From positions 1 through 26,802 of IMG/VR virus record IMGVR_UViG_3300030397_000389: DNA of 26,802 nt. One strand, written 5' to 3'. This document shows positions 1 to 25,872 of the stretch, piece after piece. The position numbers and the translations under genes were made by a program. Numbering within the stretch: the stretch's first letter is position 1; every line of letters begins with the position of its first letter. The DNA is from a virus. Its lineage: Duplodnaviria; Caudoviricetes. The notes below the pieces were generated by a model. It had not been told where the DNA came from and did not search any database. It saw nothing but the letters and a program-made list of their open reading frames with translations.

Positions 1-55
1 CTACGCATCCCCACGCAATTCGGTCTTTCCATACCGAGAATCCATTTTGTGACAT
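1..55 (-). CDS. 5' fragment of a gene running off the window (MSQNGFSVWKDRIAWGCV...)
   Basis: ATG at 55 with the frame open to the window edge; no clear RBS. Confidence 0.3.
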   Translation of the reverse strand, partial: MSQNGFSVWKDRIAWGCV

Positions 56-125
56 TTTGTTGGCCCGCTTTCGTTGCCCGTTTTCGACTAGTATTGGGCA
101 GGGCGGGGTGTCGTCCTGATAAACG

Positions 126-159
126 GCCCTCACGTTCACAGCGTGGGGGCTATTTTTTT
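126..159. terminator. Intrinsic terminator-like hairpin
   Basis: GCCCTCACG-7nt-CGTGGGGGC stem followed by a T7 run on +; abuts the stop of the minus-strand gene ending at 150, possibly bidirectional. Confidence 0.55.
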
Positions 160-500
160 GAACTGCCGCCAGCCTCCAGAATCCAACCCTTGGTGGTTTC
201 GGTGTGCTGGTTTGTGGTGCCCTCTTGGGGGCGGTACATCCACCCAGCGCCCAGGATTGATCCGCCAAGTATCGCCGCAGCAAGTGCCGTCCATGCGGCG
301 CTTGATTGCGGCTTAGGGTGTTGGTGCACCGTTGGGGAATTGAAGTTGATCACATCTTCATATTTCGGATCTTTGAACGCCTCGCCATAGTGCTGCCTCA
401 GTTGAGCATCACCCATCTGTCTGGCTCGGCTGTGGTTGTTCATCTCCTCCGCGATCCCCGCCATGTGCGACATCATCGCCATGTTCCAGAAATCGCTCAT
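150..500 (-). CDS. Hypothetical protein with C-terminal transmembrane helix (ORF open to 608; start uncertain)
   Basis: AWTALAAAILGGSILGAGWMY hydrophobic segment; last gene before the hairpin. Confidence 0.7.
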   Translation of the reverse strand: MSDFWNMAMMSHMAGIAEEMNNHSRARQMGDAQLRQHYGEAFKDPKYEDVINFNSPTVHQHPKPQSSAAWTALAAAILGGSILGAGWMYRPQEGTTNQHTETTKGWILEAGGSSKK

Positions 501-627
501 GGAACGCCGCGAATCTGGCGACGGCTGACTGGAGCCCGTCGCGGCGGCCGACCTCTCTGACGAATTGCCGCCGCGACTCATACCAAGGGAATTCAAGAAT
601 CGATTCATCGTTGGGATCTTCGATCAT
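409..627 (-). CDS. Small hypothetical protein overlapping the downstream gene in another frame
   Basis: ATGA start/stop overlap with the 624..953 gene suggests translational coupling. Confidence 0.5.
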   Translation of the reverse strand: MIEDPNDESILEFPWYESRRQFVREVGRRDGLQSAVARFAAFHERFLEHGDDVAHGGDRGGDEQPQPSQTDG

Positions 628-953
628 GAACCTTTAATCGCGTCGGGGGCTACGTTGCCACCGCTGGGCAGGTTCCCAGGGAACACGCCAGACGATTTCA
701 ATTGCAGCAGCGTGTCTGCGAGCCCCTCTTTCTCAAGCAAGTTTTGTGCGGTAGCGCCCATGAGCATCTTTTGCAGCAGGAATCCCTGCTTCGATTCCTG
801 AGCAACAAACGCGGACCCGTCGTTGAACCGTTCTGCGGTCTGCTCGATTCGGGTGTGGCGCGCGATGAAACCCTGGCTAAGAATCTCTTCTGAAAGTGGC
901 ATTAAACTACCCTCTAGGGTTGAAGTGATTTCCCCCGTCGATTCTTCGGGCAT
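624..953 (-). CDS. Hypothetical protein
   Basis: 109-aa ORF starting 12 nt after the protease stop; tight packing. Confidence 0.75.
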   Translation of the reverse strand: MPEESTGEITSTLEGSLMPLSEEILSQGFIARHTRIEQTAERFNDGSAFVAQESKQGFLLQKMLMGATAQNLLEKEGLADTLLQLKSSGVFPGNLPSGGNVAPDAIKGS

Positions 954-964
954 GACGTCTGCCT

Positions 965-2602
965 TTACTTAGGAGGTATCTGACGGAGGTATCCGTCGTG
1001 GTCCAGGCCGAACGTAACGACGTTTGGCTGGCCGTTACGCTTGTAGGTTGGATTGTCGTCACCGTCCACAATGTGGATCCGGTAGATCTTCTGTTCGAGC
1101 TGATCCACGCGATCGGACAGGCTGCTGGTGTCTGGTTTCAGGTTGACCAGCAGCTTGTCGTCAGCGTACAAGTTGCCGTCTTCGTCGACCGACATGACAG
1201 GGGTTCGCCCGTCCTTGCCGTCTTTCCCGTCCTTGCCGTCCTTGCCATCCGCTCCGCGTAGCGCCGGGTCGGATTTCAGCTCGGCGGCTAGGTCGGCTTT
1301 CATGCTGCTTAGCATGGCCGACAAGCGGTCTGAGACGGTGTCAATCACCAGGTCGGTGTCGGCGTCCTGTCCTGGCTCACCCTGAGGGCCCTGTGGCCCT
1401 GCTTCACCTTGTGGCCCTGCTGGTCCGGTTTCACCTTGCGGGCCCTGTTCGCCATCTGATACCTGATTAAGCACGCGAGCCGCGACGTCCTCAACAATCG
1501 CGTTACGGTCAATCGTGACCTGCACCGGCTTGCGACCATGGCCAAACGCTACCTGCTCATCCGCATAGCTCGAGAGCGGCTTCTCTTCTGTGGCCCGCTG
1601 CTCGAAATCCTCAAACGTCTCAGCTGACACGAACGGCGTGTCATTGCTGTCCGGTTCCGCGGCCGCCTCAGACTGCATCAGCCGTTCTGGGCTCATGTCC
1701 CAGGACAGGTCAGTCAGCTCGGCTTTGAGCCAGTTGCGGACGGTTGAAACGTTGGTCCCGTAGGTCGTCTGCGGGTCACCCCACAGCACAGCCACCAGCT
1801 CACCATTAGCGTTGAATTGACCGCCGCCGCTATTACCTTGAGTCGCTGCGGACAACGTCTGCATCTGGGTAAGGCCGCTGTCGAATTGCATCCGGGCTAT
1901 CGGATCGGACGGCACCGGAATCGATTCCTCGTCGCTGGTTACGTCCACCTGAGTTACCGGGTTGCAGCGTCGTCGACGAAACAGGAATCGGCAGGACGTT
2001 TCGGAGCGGGTCAGCGATACGGGAGCGCCGTCGCGACCAGTCCACCCCACGTATCGCTCACCCTCGCTTCCGTTGTGCCACATGTTGACGTATCCACCTA
2101 CGCGGCCCGACTGCAGCTTGTAGCGGCCAGCCGAATCAAACGCCGAAGTCCAGACCGTTGAGCCTTTGCGGGCGTGTGTCCGGGCCAGCGGCGCCACCCG
2201 TGGATACGTGACGCCGCTGACCTTGAGTACGGCCAGGTCGTAACGCTCTGACACGGCTACGCGAGTTGCCAAAGCCTGCCTGCCGTCCGCGAATGTCACG
2301 CCGATTGTGTCGCCGTCGCTCGAGCCGTGGGCGCACGTCAGCAGCCAGGTCCCGGTACTGTCGCTGTGGATAGCCGTTGCCGACGTGGCCCGCTTGATTT
2401 TCTTGTCTTCGCTGATTGCACCCACTCGAGCGGTGGTAGCCCGTACGTCTGGGGCAGTCTGCTGCGTGAATTGCTCAGCGACGAATTGAGGTCTTGCCAC
2501 AACCTGCGGCACGAATCTCTGTCCTCACGTGCCGGTCGTGCATTGCTGGGCTGCAGCCTGTGCTGCGAACGATAGACACAATACGGCAGTCAACAAACGC
2601 AT
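965..2602 (-). CDS. Secreted trypsin-like serine protease with collagen repeats; in-frame TGA at codon 26 (2525-2527), candidate selenocysteine
   Basis: Triad motifs LLTCAHG, DLAVL, GNSGGG; GXY repeats. ATG 2602 abuts the upstream stop (2603) and reads MRLLTAVLCLSFAAQAAAQQCTTGT*GQRF in frame with the 965..2512 ORF; classic signal peptide. Confidence 0.85.
1364..1453 (-). repeat. Collagen-like (Gly-X-Y)10 coding repeat; a second (GKD)n tract lies at about 1211-1249
   Basis: GEQGPQGETGPAGPQGEAGPQGPQGEPGQD and GADGKDGKDGKDGKDG in the translation. Confidence 0.9.
2488..2527 (-). promoter_or_regulatory. Putative bacterial SECIS element directly 3' of the in-frame UGA
   Basis: UGA-GGACAGAGAUUCG-UGCCGCA-GGU-UGUGGCA-AGACCUC: 7-bp upper stem starting 14 nt after UGA, apical GGU, GAG/CUC lower pairing; apex resembles the GCAGGUCUGC of E. 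coli fdhF SECIS. Confidence 0.7.
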
Positions 2603-3916
2603 TTACTCATCCTCCAGAAAGTACATGTGCCGCGGGTGTTTCTGCGGGTCATACATTTCGCAGACCACACCGTCCCACTCGGGTTTGAATTGGAAGTTCA
2701 GATTTGGGCCGCGGGTCCGGGCTGCTTGCGACCATAAGTCGACACTGAGAAATCCGCCCCGCTTCAGACTGCCGTCGTCAGCAATCTCCGGCTTGTTGCC
2801 GCGGAGCCAGCCGTACTTGCCATTGGCGAATGCGAATTTGCGAGCACTGGCCAAAGAGTGCTTGTGACAGTTGGCACACGATACACGGTCGTTTCCTAGG
2901 AAGCTGCCGCTGTAGTTGCTGGGCACGATATGGAAACCGTCCGCAGTCGGTGCCGCACAATTCGGCTTCCAGTCGACGCCCAGCGCACTTGCGAATCCGC
3001 TCAGCCGCTTGTCGTCCAACGCTCGCCGCACCACCTCAGCCGGAATCGGTGGCAGCTTGTCTACTCCGGCCCGCACGTCAAACGCCGAACCCCGCTGTGT
3101 ACCGAAAGCGTTATTGCCGCTGGTCTGGTCGGTCAAACGCATTGATACGACCGTCGTATCATCCAGCAAGTGACGGTGAAGAGTGCCGACCTGGCCGGTC
3201 TTATCGTGGTTGGTGGCAGATAGATACTCGGCCAGGTCGGCGGCACGTGGGAACGGCCTGAAAATCTCAACGCCAATCGAATCCGGTTCGCGAATCCGCC
3301 AGCGTATTTCTGCTACGTAGTGCTGCTGTGCCTCGTTGTCGTCGACAGTAATTAGCTCGAGCACCTTGGTTCCAACCGGCACACGGAAATCGGTTCCCGT
3401 TACCGTTGGCCTTGGCTGGAACACGCCCTCGAGTTCCGTGCGGTGTACGACGATTGGCCAGAATGTGCCGTCGTCACGCTTGGGGAGCAACAGGCCTTTG
3501 ATGTGACTGACGTTGTTGCTGCGAGCTGTGCCGCCGGGCTGTGGCATCCATGGCCACGAGTTGGCATCCTTTGCGTTGAGGTTTCCGCCGAAACCATCTG
3601 GTCGGCCGGCGTCTGGGAATTCACCCGAGATATTCTGGAGCGAGTCAGCCAGCCCAACCATGCCGACGTTGCCGGCCTCGCCGTCCGCACTGATAGTGAA
3701 CCCAAGCTGGTAAACCCTCGAGCCCTCGTACCAAATCATATCAGGGCTGTGCAGCGCCTCATCAAACTCTGGATCGAGCAGCTTGGGCAAGTGCTGGCGA
3801 ATGCGGTTTACTTGCTCGTCGCTGAGTACCTGCTGGCCATGAGATACCAGGCACGCCACCAGGACGGTAGCCACCAGGGCAACTATTGCCAGTGCGTCAA
3901 TCAATGCTCTTCTCAT
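2603..3916 (-). CDS. Secreted/membrane-anchored protein with one CxxCH c-type heme motif
   Basis: GAGGG-6nt-ATG at 3916; MRRALIDALAIVALVATVLVACLVSHG signal; CANCHKH motif near the C-terminus. Confidence 0.75.
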   Translation of the reverse strand: MRRALIDALAIVALVATVLVACLVSHGQQVLSDEQVNRIRQHLPKLLDPEFDEALHSPDMIWYEGSRVYQLGFTISADGEAGNVGMVGLADSLQNISGEFPDAGRPDGFGGNLNAKDANSWPWMPQPGGTARSNNVSHIKGLLLPKRDDGTFWPIVVHRTELEGVFQPRPTVTGTDFRVPVGTKVLELITVDDNEAQQHYVAEIRWRIREPDSIGVEIFRPFPRAADLAEYLSATNHDKTGQVGTLHRHLLDDTTVVSMRLTDQTSGNNAFGTQRGSAFDVRAGVDKLPPIPAEVVRRALDDKRLSGFASALGVDWKPNCAAPTADGFHIVPSNYSGSFLGNDRVSCANCHKHSLASARKFAFANGKYGWLRGNKPEIADDGSLKRGGFLSVDLWSQAARTRGPNLNFQFKPEWDGVVCEMYDPQKHPRHMYFLEDE

Positions 3917-3924
3917 TTGAACCC

Positions 3925-4305
3925 TCAAAACCAGAGCACCCTTAGGAACAGGCACCGCCACATGATTCGCAGCTTGGCCCATGCCGATAACGGCTCGCTG
4001 AACGTGAAATACCAAACGCCATTCAACGCTACCCGCCGATAGTAAATTCCCGCGAACCACGCACTGGCACCGCATCGCCGCAAGTTGCGTTTGAAAATCC
4101 GGTCGACCTCTTCCCGCCGCCGCTCGTTCCCGCCAATGCCGTAGGCGTAATCGTGGTAGTGACACGCTGGCCGCAGGTCGGTGCCGCCAACCAGGTCCGG
4201 GCTCATGGTGCAGCCGTTGCTCATGTAGTCATCTGGCGGCGTCGGCCCCTCCATGAGGGTTAGCAGCGACTGCGGTAAATCGGCGTTGCACAGGTGCGGT
4301 GGCAT
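3925..4305 (-). CDS. Phospholipase A2-like protein
   Basis: NGCTMSPD...ACHYHDYAY...DRIFKRNL pattern matches the C-x-x-H-D-x-x-Y catalytic helix of prokaryotic PLA2-fold proteins. Confidence 0.7.
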   Translation of the reverse strand: MPPHLCNADLPQSLLTLMEGPTPPDDYMSNGCTMSPDLVGGTDLRPACHYHDYAYGIGGNERRREEVDRIFKRNLRRCGASAWFAGIYYRRVALNGVWYFTFSEPLSAWAKLRIMWRCLFLRVLWF

Positions 4306-4322
4306 GTTAGCCCCAAGAAACG

Positions 4323-4372
4323 AAAAAAGCCCGCCGCAAGTCGCTGGCCAATTCAGCGAACTACGGCGGGCT
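4323..4372 (-). terminator. Intrinsic terminator ending the early operon
   Basis: AGCCCGCCGUAG-UUCGCUG-loop-CAGCGA-CUUGCGGCGGGCU followed by a U-run on the minus strand. Confidence 0.85.
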
Positions 4373-4392
4373 CTCCAGCCAATGGCGGCGTC

Positions 4393-4581
4393 TCACCCTG
4401 GTCGATTTGTCTTCCGTAATAGTAGGGCTTCGGGGGTGGTTGGTGCAAGCCGAACGCGGGTATTCGGCGGTGCGGAAACCACCACCTGGCCGCTATTTCG
4501 GTCCATTATCACGCGGATATTGTCGCCGATTTCTATTACACCTGGCCTGAATCGGAACGGCTTGAAAGTCGGCTCTGCCAT
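4393..4581 (-). CDS. CsrA/RsmA-like small RNA-binding protein (62 aa)
   Basis: AGGAGG RBS before ATG 4581; VIEIGDNIRVIMDRNSGQVVVSAPPNTRV aligns to the CsrA core (I-x-IGD-x-I-x-V...I-x-AP-x-x-x-x-V); N-terminus divergent. Confidence 0.6.
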   Translation of the reverse strand: MAEPTFKPFRFRPGVIEIGDNIRVIMDRNSGQVVVSAPPNTRVRLAPTTPEALLLRKTNRPG

Positions 4582-4637
4582 GGGCGCCCCTCCTGAGCTA
4601 TCCACTACGAAATCCCCGTCGTCGCTGACTTGTTGAA

Positions 4638-5030
4638 TCAATACTCCACCCTCACCGCGTGCCCTTGCTCGACAAGCCAGTTGTTGACGTTCGTTTGGCC
4701 TATCCAAACCGTCGCTATCCACCGGCCGTATTTGCCGCGTCGGTCCCCGTGCGTGTCGATTACGATTCGCTTGCCCTCAATCAACTCGACCAGCGCCGCT
4801 TTGGCTGCCAGCCCCCGCTCGCGTTCGTCGCCGCGTGTCTCCCATGCGTCGATACCTTGGAGCCGAAACCGGTCCCGCAGCACGTGGCGGAAGCCGGATG
4901 CGACAACTAGGTCCAGCGTGTCGCCGTCTACCACGCGTTCAACGCGGGCGTGGTAGGTCGAGGTGACCGGCGGCGCGGGTTGGACCATCGATAGGGCGAT
5001 GAGTGCGGCGATGGTTAGGGGGCTACGCAT
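4638..5030 (-). CDS. Thermonuclease (SNase family) with signal peptide
   Basis: RVVDGDT, RLQGIDAWE, GKYGRWIA, VNNWLVEQGHA motifs. Confidence 0.9.
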   Translation of the reverse strand: MRSPLTIAALIALSMVQPAPPVTSTYHARVERVVDGDTLDLVVASGFRHVLRDRFRLQGIDAWETRGDERERGLAAKAALVELIEGKRIVIDTHGDRRGKYGRWIATVWIGQTNVNNWLVEQGHAVRVEY

Positions 5031-21641: not shown

Positions 21642-22067
21642 TTACGCCCTCACATACCCAGTGACGTCTATATTGAGATTTATCTCAGTCGTGCTCGAGC
21701 CGGTGCCAAGTATCGACGAATACCACCCACTGGCACCGTCGCTCACCGGCGCGATGCCGCCGGTAGTTGCCGACAGCACATACACCTCACCTACAACTAC
21801 CGTTCCACCGACTGTATAGGTGCCGCGACTTTGAACTAGCATGCTTTCACCGTCCGCAGCGTTTGAAATCGCGATTACCAGCCCCTCGCTGCCGGCAGTC
21901 TCAGCGGAGTTATCGGCGTCGCCACGGTAATACTCGCCGTCCGAATCCTTCTTGTAACACACCATGCCGGCGGTGATCGTTTCGCCAGCCGTAACTGTCT
22001 GGACCGTTGCCCCACCCTGCGTTGAGCCTGGCCGGACATTCGCTGCGGTAACTGACACGTCAGCCAT
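21642..22067 (-). CDS. Virion structural protein, paralog 2 (141 aa)
   Basis: AGETITAG..Y, YVLSAT.GGIAP motifs of cement/fibre-type beta proteins. Confidence 0.75.
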   Translation of the reverse strand: MADVSVTAANVRPGSTQGGATVQTVTAGETITAGMVCYKKDSDGEYYRGDADNSAETAGSEGLVIAISNAADGESMLVQSRGTYTVGGTVVVGEVYVLSATTGGIAPVSDGASGWYSSILGTGSSTTEINLNIDVTGYVRA

Positions 22068-22492
22068 TACGCCCTCACGTATCCAGTGACGTCGACATTC
22101 AGGTTAATTTCAGTTGTGCTGCTGCCGGTGCCCAGTATCGATGTGTACCACCCACTGGCACCGTCGCTGGCTGGAGCAATGCCGCCGGCAGTCGACGACA
22201 CAACATACAGCTCACCCACAACCGTGGTTGCCCCTGCCGCATAGACGCCCTTTTTCTGTATCACCAGCGTCTCACCGTCTCCTGCGTTGGTGAGTGCCAC
22301 AGCCAGGCCGCCGCTCCCCGCAGTCTCGGCGGAACTATCAGCGTCGGCCTTATACCACTCCGAATCGGACGCCTTCTTGTAAACAGACTGGCCGGCGGTG
22401 ATCGTTTCGCCTGCCGTGACCGTCTCAATGTTTGCACCGCTGGCGAGCGAACCCGCACGCACATTGGCAGCCGTAACTGATATGTCAGCCAT
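22067..22492 (-). CDS. Virion structural protein, paralog 1 (141 aa)
   Basis: About 71% identical (hand count, ungapped) to 21642..22067. Confidence 0.75.
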   Translation of the reverse strand: MADISVTAANVRAGSLASGANIETVTAGETITAGQSVYKKASDSEWYKADADSSAETAGSGGLAVALTNAGDGETLVIQKKGVYAAGATTVVGELYVVSSTAGGIAPASDGASGWYTSILGTGSSTTEINLNVDVTGYVRA

Positions 22493-23436: not shown

Positions 23437-25157
23437 TAGAAGTTCACCTCCTCAATCTTCAGTGCATCGCGTGTATTTTGCTCAATCCGCTCCAGCACCT
23501 GCAGCGTTTTTTTGGCGGCCTTAGCTACGTTTGCCTTCGCTTTATCCACAGTCCGCTGATCTAAGTTGAACGGCGCTGGCCCCGCCAGCTCTTCGGCAAT
23601 GCGTGCATTCCGGGCTGCAATTCCAGCACGAAACTCCTTTACCTCCGCTCTGACAACATTTGGATTGCCAAAGGGGAACCGCTGGGCAAGTTCTTTCGCG
23701 TGAAAGTTTGGGCCGCGACGGCTGGCGTTTGCAAATGCTTGGGCGGGGTTAAATGCAAACGGGAACCTACGCACGGACCTGTCCGGTTGTGCTGCCCTAT
23801 CAACAGCGTCAGCTGGGGGCGCGTTAAGAAATGCCTGCCCCGGACCAAACAGCTTGAACATCGGGTTGTCAGTCGCTTCATCCAGTTTGTCCAAACCTTT
23901 GCTAAGCAGCTTCAGGAATGGGCCCAGTCCCTTATGCGAAACAGACTGAAAACTAGCACTCAAACGGTTCATTGACTTCTCAAACTCGGGCACCGTCTTA
24001 TCCGCAATATCCTCCATCGTCCCCGTTGCGGTATTCAGGTCGCCGCGATAGTCCTTGATCGCCTTTGACATGCCCACAAGTGCTGCGATGTAACCGACAG
24101 ACTTATCCGTGAACCCCAGCGCCATCAACGTTGCCTTTCGCTGTGCAACCGACAGTGGCCCCAGTTTTGACTCCAGGTCGGCGACAATATCACTCATGGC
24201 GTGCATTTTTCCGTTAGCATCAAATACAGCAATGCCGGCACTCTTAAATGCACGCTCATTTCTAAGCGCCTTAGTCGTCAATTCGCGTAACACAATCGCC
24301 AATGCCGTTCCGCCATCAGCACCCTTAACTCCCTGGTCGGCGAACGCAGCCAGCACCGCAACGCCTTCCTCAATGCTCTTGTTTGTCTGCCTCAACGCAG
24401 CCCCAGCTTTGTTGGTAAGTGACTCCGAGAATTGCTGGACCGATGCGTTTGCAATTGTGTTTGCCTTAACAAGCACGTCGGCCACGCGGGTCATGTTTCG
24501 CATATTCTCAGCGGTGTCTTTGGACGTCAGACCCAGAGCTGATTGAGCGTCGGTTAACAAATCCGTTGCCAGTGCCAAATCAAAGTTGCCAGCTTGTGCG
24601 AACTTGGCAACCTTGGGAAGTGCAGCGATCTGTTGCGTGGCGTTCATCCCCGCGGATCCCAGGAAGAAATATGCCTCAGCAGCATCCTTGGTAGAGAAGG
24701 GCGTATCCTTAGCAACCTCCTTTGCGGTGCGGGTCATCTCATGGCGAATCTGTCCATTCATGTCGGCGATAATCGCGGTTGAGCGAGCCATTGCACTTTC
24801 AAAGTCACGTGTAGCCCGCAACGCCGCACCACCCACGCGGCTTACTAACGCCCCACCCACAATGGCCGAGCCGAACTTGCCCAACTCTGCTCCCAAGCTC
24901 GCTGCCGTAGTTTTTGTAGTCTTCATCTGGCCTGACAGCTGCTGATGAGCACGCCGATACGTGTGGACGTCAATTGCCCCCTTCTTGTAAAGAGCCCCTA
25001 GCGACTTTAACGAGGTCTCGAGTTTTTCCGCCGGCGTCTTGGTCTCGAACATGACCTTCTTGGCCAGGTTCAATTCCTTGCGACTGGCTACACTTCCGGA
25101 CACAAACTGCTTGTGGTCCATGACTAGCTTGTAAGCCAGTGTCTCAATAGCCATCAC
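23436..25157 (-). CDS. Tail tape measure protein (TP901-family core)
   Basis: FESAMAR, TPFSTKDAAEAYFFLGSAG, DLALATDLLTD, GVKGADGGTAL, FDANGKM motifs. Confidence 0.95.
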   Translation of the reverse strand: MMAIETLAYKLVMDHKQFVSGSVASRKELNLAKKVMFETKTPAEKLETSLKSLGALYKKGAIDVHTYRRAHQQLSGQMKTTKTTAASLGAELGKFGSAIVGGALVSRVGGAALRATRDFESAMARSTAIIADMNGQIRHEMTRTAKEVAKDTPFSTKDAAEAYFFLGSAGMNATQQIAALPKVAKFAQAGNFDLALATDLLTDAQSALGLTSKDTAENMRNMTRVADVLVKANTIANASVQQFSESLTNKAGAALRQTNKSIEEGVAVLAAFADQGVKGADGGTALAIVLRELTTKALRNERAFKSAGIAVFDANGKMHAMSDIVADLESKLGPLSVAQRKATLMALGFTDKSVGYIAALVGMSKAIKDYRGDLNTATGTMEDIADKTVPEFEKSMNRLSASFQSVSHKGLGPFLKLLSKGLDKLDEATDNPMFKLFGPGQAFLNAPPADAVDRAAQPDRSVRRFPFAFNPAQAFANASRRGPNFHAKELAQRFPFGNPNVVRAEVKEFRAGIAARNARIAEELAGPAPFNLDQRTVDKAKANVAKAAKKTLQVLERIEQNTRDALKIEEVNF

Positions 25158-25504
25158 ACACCCGTGATACTGCGGAGCATATTGAACTGATCATCAGCGG
25201 ATTGCACGTATACCTTCTGCTGCGGCTCCTCGCCGAATTCCGGCATGAAATCATCCGGCGTTTTCCAGTCGGACTCAGCAACCTCACCGCCAAGTCTCGA
25301 TGCGATTCGCAGGCTTGCGTTGTAGATGTCGCATCGTATGGCCGACACCATCTTCCACTGTCCGCCCCAGTCATCAAGCAATGCAAGTGCGTGAAAGAGC
25401 CGCAACTCATCGGGCGGCAGGTCGTCTATCTGGCTATCTGTCCAGCCAGTGCGAACCGCTAAGCGTTTTCGGAAGATTTCGTCGGGTCGTTTTCGGAGTT
25501 TTTT
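25154..25504 (-). CDS. Tail assembly chaperone T segment (gpGT, reached by -1 frameshift)
   Basis: Slippery A AAA AAC at 25498-25504; the -1 frame is open (KLRKRPDEIFRKRLAVRTGW...LRLFHAL) to 25154. Confidence 0.85.
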   Translation of the reverse strand, partial: KKLRKRPDEIFRKRLAVRTGWTDSQIDDLPPDELRLFHALALLDDWGGQWKMVSAIRCDIYNASLRIASRLGGEVAESDWKTPDDFMPEFGEEPQQKVYVQSADDQFNMLRSITGV

Positions 25505-25872
25505 ACCGCGTCCTCAATCAGCGTGAAATCGTTGTCGTCCGCGAATCCTGTATGCTTCTTGCACGCGTTGAACAGCGTCGTCACTACACCGCCGTCGATA
25601 CTGTCAAATACGCCGTTAAGTGCGTCGGCGTCGCTGAACATGGGCGTGGCGTCTGCGTTGAGTACGCACCGCGAAATCAGCAGCTCCTGCATTCGGTCGC
25701 CACGCTCGCGGATGAGTTCACCTTTGCGGTCCAGCAGTGACGTTCGTAGCTGCCGCATTTCCGTATTGGTCAACGACTGAATACGGATGTCGCCGATATC
25801 TAGCTTTACGATTTTGTAGCGTCGGCCGCTCGACTTGCTTAGCAGCTCTGACTTATCCAGCAGTGCCATCAT
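25459..25872 (-). CDS. Tail assembly chaperone (gpG-like)
   Basis: Between major tail and tape measure; ends ...DAVKNS at the slippery site. Confidence 0.85.
   Translation of the reverse strand: MMALLDKSELLSKSSGRRYKIVKLDIGDIRIQSLTNTEMRQLRTSLLDRKGELIRERGDRMQELLISRCVLNADATPMFSDADALNGVFDSIDGGVVTTLFNACKKHTGFADDNDFTLIEDAVKNSENDPTKSSENA

Follow-up and report, generated by a model that had tools for sequence, protein, structure and literature searches.

The locus analyzed in this work raises the question of whether a phage protease gene with an in-frame TGA is decoded at that codon as selenocysteine by the host cell. The whole stretch of DNA that was analyzed, hereafter the window, is a virus contig of 26,802 bases, 26% complete according to CheckV, that carries integrase, RusA, replication and tail tape-measure genes. 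On its minus strand lies a protease gene (965-2602) of 545 codons if the UGA is read through. Codon 26 is a TGA (2525-2527, minus strand) that closes the series C-T-T-G-T-TGA (residues 21-26; 2525-2542, minus strand), equivalent to the CxxGxC motif of the protein family with the TGA as the second Cys. Having weighed together a prior for Sec that is low among interrupted phage genes, the Cys position, a hairpin behind the codon, the absence of any second case and the scale of the scan, we consider host-dependent selenocysteine recoding of this UGA to be the probable explanation, if far from a certain one. As a candidate phage-encoded selenoprotein that would bring a new motif, the gene is real and well placed, although unproven. 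It was picked from a very large scan, so that rare coincidences are to be expected.

The sequence-only reading had proposed that the gene begins at an ATG next to the upstream stop codon and encodes a leader followed by QQCTTGT-TGA-GQRF in frame with the protease. Translation from ATG 2602 confirms this, giving MRLLTAVLCLSFAAQAAAQQCTTGT-TGA-GQRF in the same frame as the protease, with 519 open codons after the TGA (2527-2525). The ATG (2602-2600, minus strand) abuts the TAA of the upstream gene (2605-2603), and a Shine-Dalgarno sequence GGAGG lies 8 nt to its 5' side (2611-2615, minus strand), within the end of that gene; in a comparison of 16 starts, its duplex with the anti-Shine-Dalgarno sequence (-9.3 kcal/mol) belongs to the stronger ones. 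As judged by eye, the signal-peptide-like leader (residues 1-18 with the start codon; 2549-2602, minus strand) has a basic start, a hydrophobic core and AAA ahead of QQC, and homologues of the family show a like leader ahead of their Cys motif. Coding sequence and homology are found on both sides of the in-frame UGA, as is expected of a selenoprotein gene. The start given in the open reading frame track, GTG 2512 (2510-2512, minus strand), lies inside this longer gene, also as proposed. This GTG stands at the foot of the hairpin, has a weaker Shine-Dalgarno-like GAGG (-5.9 kcal/mol) that overlaps the TGA, and is a possible re-initiation site; no exact copy of the 515-residue truncated product was present in the protein collection. 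A promoter and terminator scan of positions 1-4800 gave results at chance level.

The body of the protein is a trypsin-like (HtrA/DegS-like) serine protease domain (residues ~54-300; 1700-2443, minus strand; Pfam Trypsin_2, E 1e-14) followed by a collagen-like G-X-Y stalk (1367-1453, minus strand) that matches Pfam Collagen with an E value of 1e-5, below the curated cut-off. The triad H92/D122/S258 is intact and falls at invariant columns of the homologue alignment, and the best PDB sequence matches of the protease are DegS, DegQ and DegP. The phage protein thus shares with HtrA/DegS-type proteases (Pfam Trypsin_2, PF13365) the protease domain and the His-Asp-Ser triad, whereas it differs from them in that Pfam found no PDZ match, in that all NCBIfam HtrA/Deg scores were far under the cut-off, and in its collagen stalk and N-terminal Cys module. 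For the first 287 residues of the mature protein, AlphaFold gave a model with a pLDDT of 80 and a pTM of 0.78; the protease domain contains a low-confidence insertion, and the first 21 residues, motif included, are unstructured and of low confidence.

What residue relatives carry at the TGA column was determined by a profile search against 1.84 billion representatives, which gave 878 matches. Among the best 150 of these 878, which were examined, 55 have CxxGxC ahead of the catalytic His (a separate count limited to the first 70 residues gives 54), 10 carry a different Cys motif, 78 have none and 7 could not be placed. The motif is found in four of the five nearest proteins (P0003, P0031, P0068 and P0117), while P0002, which is the closest homologue with 68% identity across the aligned part, is without the whole motif segment. 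In P0003 (52% identical), CANGRC stands in register with CTTGT-TGA, and L034, a locus that is a near twin of P0003 and has the same two kinds of downstream gene, reads TGT at the TGA column. The near clade is marked by shared insertions, with Cys-Cys in the same four proteins. The proposal that the TGA occupies the second Cys of a C-x-x-G-x-C motif is therefore borne out by homologues that have Cys there, namely P0003, L034, P0031, P0068 and P0117. In the wider family, studied in 80 of 89 viral loci that include many near duplicates, a Cys module fills this slot in 70 of the 80 (16 CxxGxC, 42 paired CxxCxG, 8 WCxxC and 4 similar modules), and two proteins have a Pfam thioredoxin domain in the slot. 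We take the paired CxxCxG modules to resemble the DnaJ zinc finger. Since Cys modules, thioredoxin-type ones included, recur across the family, the slot is a module of thiol or metal type, and one of its cysteines is where the TGA falls.

Two observations on the family can be added. Across its members, the Cys modules that occupy the slot between signal peptide and protease are interchangeable (L179-L258; P0116, P0152). Furthermore, P0047, P0048, P0060 and the P0161 cluster are family members annotated without a leader, and the six 293-residue members of the P0161 cluster all start just 5' of the catalytic His codon; these leaderless members are candidates for an upstream in-frame stop.

The hairpin behind the TGA, UGCCGCA-GGU-UGUGGCA, folds as the earlier reader had claimed. 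This SECIS-like element (2488-2511, minus strand) comprises a 7-bp upper stem (2511-2495), a GGU loop (2504-2502) and a lower stem that extends to 2488 and is predicted to pair back with bases at and just after the UGA; the hairpin starts at the 14th base after the UGA and its loop 20 nt after it. Folding energy was barely beyond chance for a 40-nt stretch (z -1.73; 9/200 shuffles as good), longer stretches gave z values of -0.75 and 0.27, and no Rfam family matched positions 2300-2700 at E ≤ 10. The bacterial SECIS model, in the form in which it appears in Fig. 2A of PMC13188914, calls for a loop of 3-9 nt with a G in the first two places, an upper stem of 4-16 bp, a distance of 16-37 nt from the UGA and an MFE of -7.5 or below. 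All four constraints of that figure are satisfied by the focal hairpin in our own implementation, which is other than bSECISearch. The model is permissive, given that it passes 203 of the 928 TGA triplets of the window, or 93/928 when a G[G/U] loop rule is applied (a background of 10-22%), 5/16 Cys versions of the family, and 721/2000 or 426/2000 synonymous recodings.

For a narrower test, eight formate dehydrogenase (FDH) genes, five with TGA and three with Cys, served as calibration; they were used because the search for SelD, the intended positive control, found only Cys-type genes (4/151 genomes over the cut-off). A stem of 5 bp whose G-U triloop lies 19 nt after the codon was present in 5/5 FDH genes with TGA and in 0/3 with Cys. 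The focal hairpin resembles this fdoG-type SECIS, with its G-U triloop 19 nt from the UGA, as well as the SECIS of SaoC, described in the portion of 10.1101/2022.07.06.499078 at hand as a GGU loop on a 7-bp stem. The narrow test passes the focal hairpin, all five FDH Sec codons and none of the three FDH Cys codons; elsewhere it passes 3/929 TGAs of the window (the focal one included), 15/5351 sampled positions, 112/5000 synonymous recodings and 0/16 Cys versions of the family. As it was fitted to the FDH genes and defined after the hairpin was known, and as these controls are homologous, we weighed the hairpin as a factor of about 5 to 50 and not more. A "strict" rule demanding a 7-bp hairpin, which selects 5/928 TGAs, was dropped as the main statistic because 0/5 real FDH SECIS elements pass it.

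A second UGA version of the gene was sought in several collections. None appeared in 102 related loci, nor in ten further loci, two of them new contigs. A scan of viral contigs for the motif plus a SECIS, covering 20 of the 64 parts of the collection, gave no UGA version among 120 matches, and a second motif scan of viral contigs gave 13 matches with two real genes, both with TGC; otherwise, both scans returned off-frame TGA noise only. The full-length protein retrieved from viral contigs 33 loci with collagen matches only, and a three-sequence alignment retrieved none from viral contigs and three metagenome loci, of which one was a true near homologue. Cultured phages gave no match, no shorter homologue was present among 574 candidates, and a genome scan with the downstream gene yielded one unrelated locus. 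The reach of these searches is set by a near-clade DNA coverage of one locus (L034), by the fact that protein collections cannot show UGA forms, and by a search space outside which Planctomycetota genomes fell. The UGA with its hairpin was thus met in two near-identical haplotypes from a single study and in no independent lineage and, since a second conserved lineage was sought and not found, membership among bacterial selenoprotein genes is not established. Of the expected alternation of Cys and TGA with a hairpin in TGA versions only, one half is seen, in that Cys stands at the column and no Cys version passes the narrow test, but the other half, a second TGA version, is not. Likewise, the circumstance named beforehand as telling against the proposal, a TGA private to this phage, is partly the case: every homologue with readable DNA has TGC or TGT, so that, up to now, the TGA has been seen in this phage population only.

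As far as contigs show, the TGA is not a read error. The stretch is present in three runs (X1, X2 and X3), all from one study and one of them possibly the source of the window itself, and the TGA is unchanged in the contigs of all three, at contig depths of 13-55, contigs being prone to drop rare alleles; no RNA dataset is listed among those that contain the stretch. In X1, a single contig of depth 19.7 crosses the TGA. X2 and X3 each have a pair of contigs that overlap on 2513-2542, with the TGA inside, and no other letter is found there. The contigs of X1, X2 and X3 all depart from the window at five shared sites within 2368-2423 (the third positions of codons 60 and 64, two positions in codon 65 and the first of codon 79), and well-covered contigs show no further differences across 900-4300. 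This five-site stretch has the look of a short tract of recombination; in X1 there is, in addition, a protease allele that shows 25 differences in 2268-2407. Given the five nearby differences, two close haplotypes share the TGA and its hairpin; the time depth of the TGA is small, since a single study supplied all three runs and the two haplotypes show no other differences. As a separate observation, the 30-mer at 2513-2542, which spans the codons C-T-T-G-T-TGA-G-Q-R-F, is the exact meeting point of the X2 and X3 contig pairs, with depths of 17.6 vs 55 for one pair and of 37.8 vs 13.3 for the second. Further sequence must diverge at this block, and it may be another allele with the same TGA block.

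The strongest competing explanation is a recent nonsense change from TGC or TGT to TGA that became widespread in one phage or prophage population, after which the gene would be dead or re-initiated and the hairpin a product of chance; upon re-initiation at GTG 2512 a signal-less cytoplasmic protease would be made. We regard it as a substantial minority possibility. One base separates a Cys codon from TGA, yet of the single-base routes to a stop in the protease gene only 2/167 (2/34 for those to TGA) hit a motif Cys. Lax SECIS rules pass 10-36% of controls, whereas a control-like hairpin would follow in only 0.3-2% of cases. The GTG has its Shine-Dalgarno-like GAGG, but is placed at the foot of the stem. 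The integrase implies that the phage is able to live on as a prophage, the TGA is so far private, and three of the five haplotype differences change amino acids (codons 65 and 79); against this, no second stop has arisen in the 519 codons downstream, the triad is intact, and the TGA allele stands alone in contigs, which drop rare variants. If this explanation were right, the locus would be an ordinary nonsense allele.

Rather improbable, in our view, is that the UGA is read through as Cys by a SECIS-dependent tRNA of the tRNA-ReC type, or leakily as some other residue, so that the hairpin or the context would tune expression independently of selenium. Cys is indeed the family residue at this column, and SECIS-dependent UGA-to-Cys decoding has been reported in some bacteria, but the system is described, in the part of PMC13582414 at hand, as standing beside a normal tRNA-Sec and in few lineages, the phage record is without tRNA and nothing here points to such a system. 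The last alternative, a sequencing or assembly error in what is an uncultured-virus contig, or a TGA that is a sense codon phage-wide, is largely refuted and very improbable, as the TGA recurs in the contigs of 3/3 runs and is the ordinary stop of most phage genes, several overlapping the next start, which excludes a changed genetic code of the 4/25 type.

Under selenocysteine recoding, the gene product would be a trypsin-like protease of 545 residues, exported and borne on a collagen stalk. Host SelB would bind the GGU-loop hairpin and deliver Sec-tRNA at UGA 26; upon cleavage of the signal peptide, the protein would start with a flexible arm carrying C-x-x-G-x-U, in which C21 and U26 may join in a small Se-S ring, in place of the disulphide expected in relatives. 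As the arm lies outside the protease fold, the Sec is probably non-catalytic, and as failed recoding would leave a peptide of 25 residues, the output of exported protease may be tied to the host selenium supply. The machinery had been said to be absent from the window, and it is: the record contains no tRNA and no SelB, and no Sel gene was detected in the 35 ORFs scanned with Pfam. A CxxGxU selenoprotein that relies on host machinery, as proposed in the sequence-only reading, hence receives partial support, from the Cys column and the hairpin geometry, but not from a second UGA lineage. The fuller claim, in which a temperate planctomycete phage encodes a true selenoprotein, its CxxGxU motif new to the present catalogue, that acts as a selenium-switched envelope protease, with more members hidden as truncated calls, we hold to be slightly short of an even chance.

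That the host is a planctomycete is suggested by the names of family members, which point to Planctomycetota, and 4/10 structural neighbours of the integrase point the same way, as a lead only. The part of PMC4807772 at hand lists four planctomycetes with full Sec gene sets and one without. The protease is followed by a gene of 109 codons' product length (109 aa; 624-953, minus strand), which follows a related protease gene in other phages, and by a second gene (152 aa; 150-608, minus strand) with a hydrophobic C-terminal stretch and a like-built counterpart in L034. This cassette of protease and two small genes, located after RusA, recurs in other phages and, judging from gene context only, most likely acts on the host envelope.

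Among known systems, bacterial selenoprotein genes with a SelB-read SECIS inside the open reading frame (FdoG/FdnG type) share with the phage gene an in-frame UGA at a Cys column, a short stem whose triloop, 19-20 nt after the UGA, starts with G and contains U, and a lower stem. However, FDH has many UGA orthologues whereas no second one is known for the phage gene, and the phage gene would also differ in the absence of its own Sec machinery and, according to the model, in a Sec located in a flexible arm outside the enzyme fold. Trypsin-like selenoproteins had been predicted on the basis of Global Ocean Sampling (GOS) data in marine bacteria (Zhang and Gladyshev 2008, PMC2398784). As described in the portion of that article at hand, they have in common with the phage protein a secreted trypsin fold and a predicted Sec at a conserved Cys, but in that family (COG5640) the Sec lies inside the domain, in WGYGU after the catalytic Ser, and the C-terminus is different, whereas the phage protein has its candidate Sec at residue 26, in CxxGxU, before the domain, and a collagen stalk. 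Membership of the phage protein in COG5640 was rejected because residue 26 precedes the trypsin domain; the "MucD" family of the same portion of PMC2398784 is a CxxU thioredoxin-like protein distinct from the phage protease. The contention that no selenoprotein of such architecture is known therefore holds for the site and the architecture, but trypsin-like selenoproteins as such were already predicted. Basilisk-like phages touch the Sec pathway by encoding a tRNA-Sec (PMC6145125, in the portion at hand); what is described there is a tRNA gene and not a selenoprotein, while our record is without tRNA.

No phage selenoprotein and no CxxGxU motif was found in the literature searched, although a precedent may exist in supplements, in BSepDB or in subscription papers. 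The words "phage", "viral", "protease", "trypsin" and "CxxGx" are absent from the portion at hand of a 2026 review of 119 prokaryotic selenoprotein families (PMC13188914), and searching for the motif in planctomycetes returned general planctomycete papers only. If true, the recoding would make this a phage gene decoded by the host selenocysteine system, the nearest case described being, in the portion of PMC6145125 at hand, the phage tRNA-Sec. It would also add a new Sec motif, CxxGxU, that is secreted and non-catalytic, tie phage host range and protease output to the selenium supply, and provide a first handle on the very common, unexplained CxxGxC of planctomycete-phage secreted proteins.

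Some minor observations were made elsewhere in the window. The gene upstream of the protease (2603-3916, minus strand), with ATG 3916 as its most likely start, combines a leader resembling a signal peptide with a CxxCH motif (CANCH), which we take to be of the haem c-binding type; queries that began four codons in matched neither a Pfam or PHROG family nor any viral relative. Between RusA and the cassette (3925-5030, minus strand) lie a phospholipase A2/DUF1353-like gene and a gene for a staphylococcal nuclease whose leader is hydrophobic. Two tandem genes of 141 aa at 21642-22492 (minus strand), the first without a Pfam or PHROG match, are clear paralogues. Finally, two short ORFs ahead of the tape-measure gene (25154-25872, minus strand) are presumably placed like the tail-assembly-chaperone pair, which is often joined by a frameshift.
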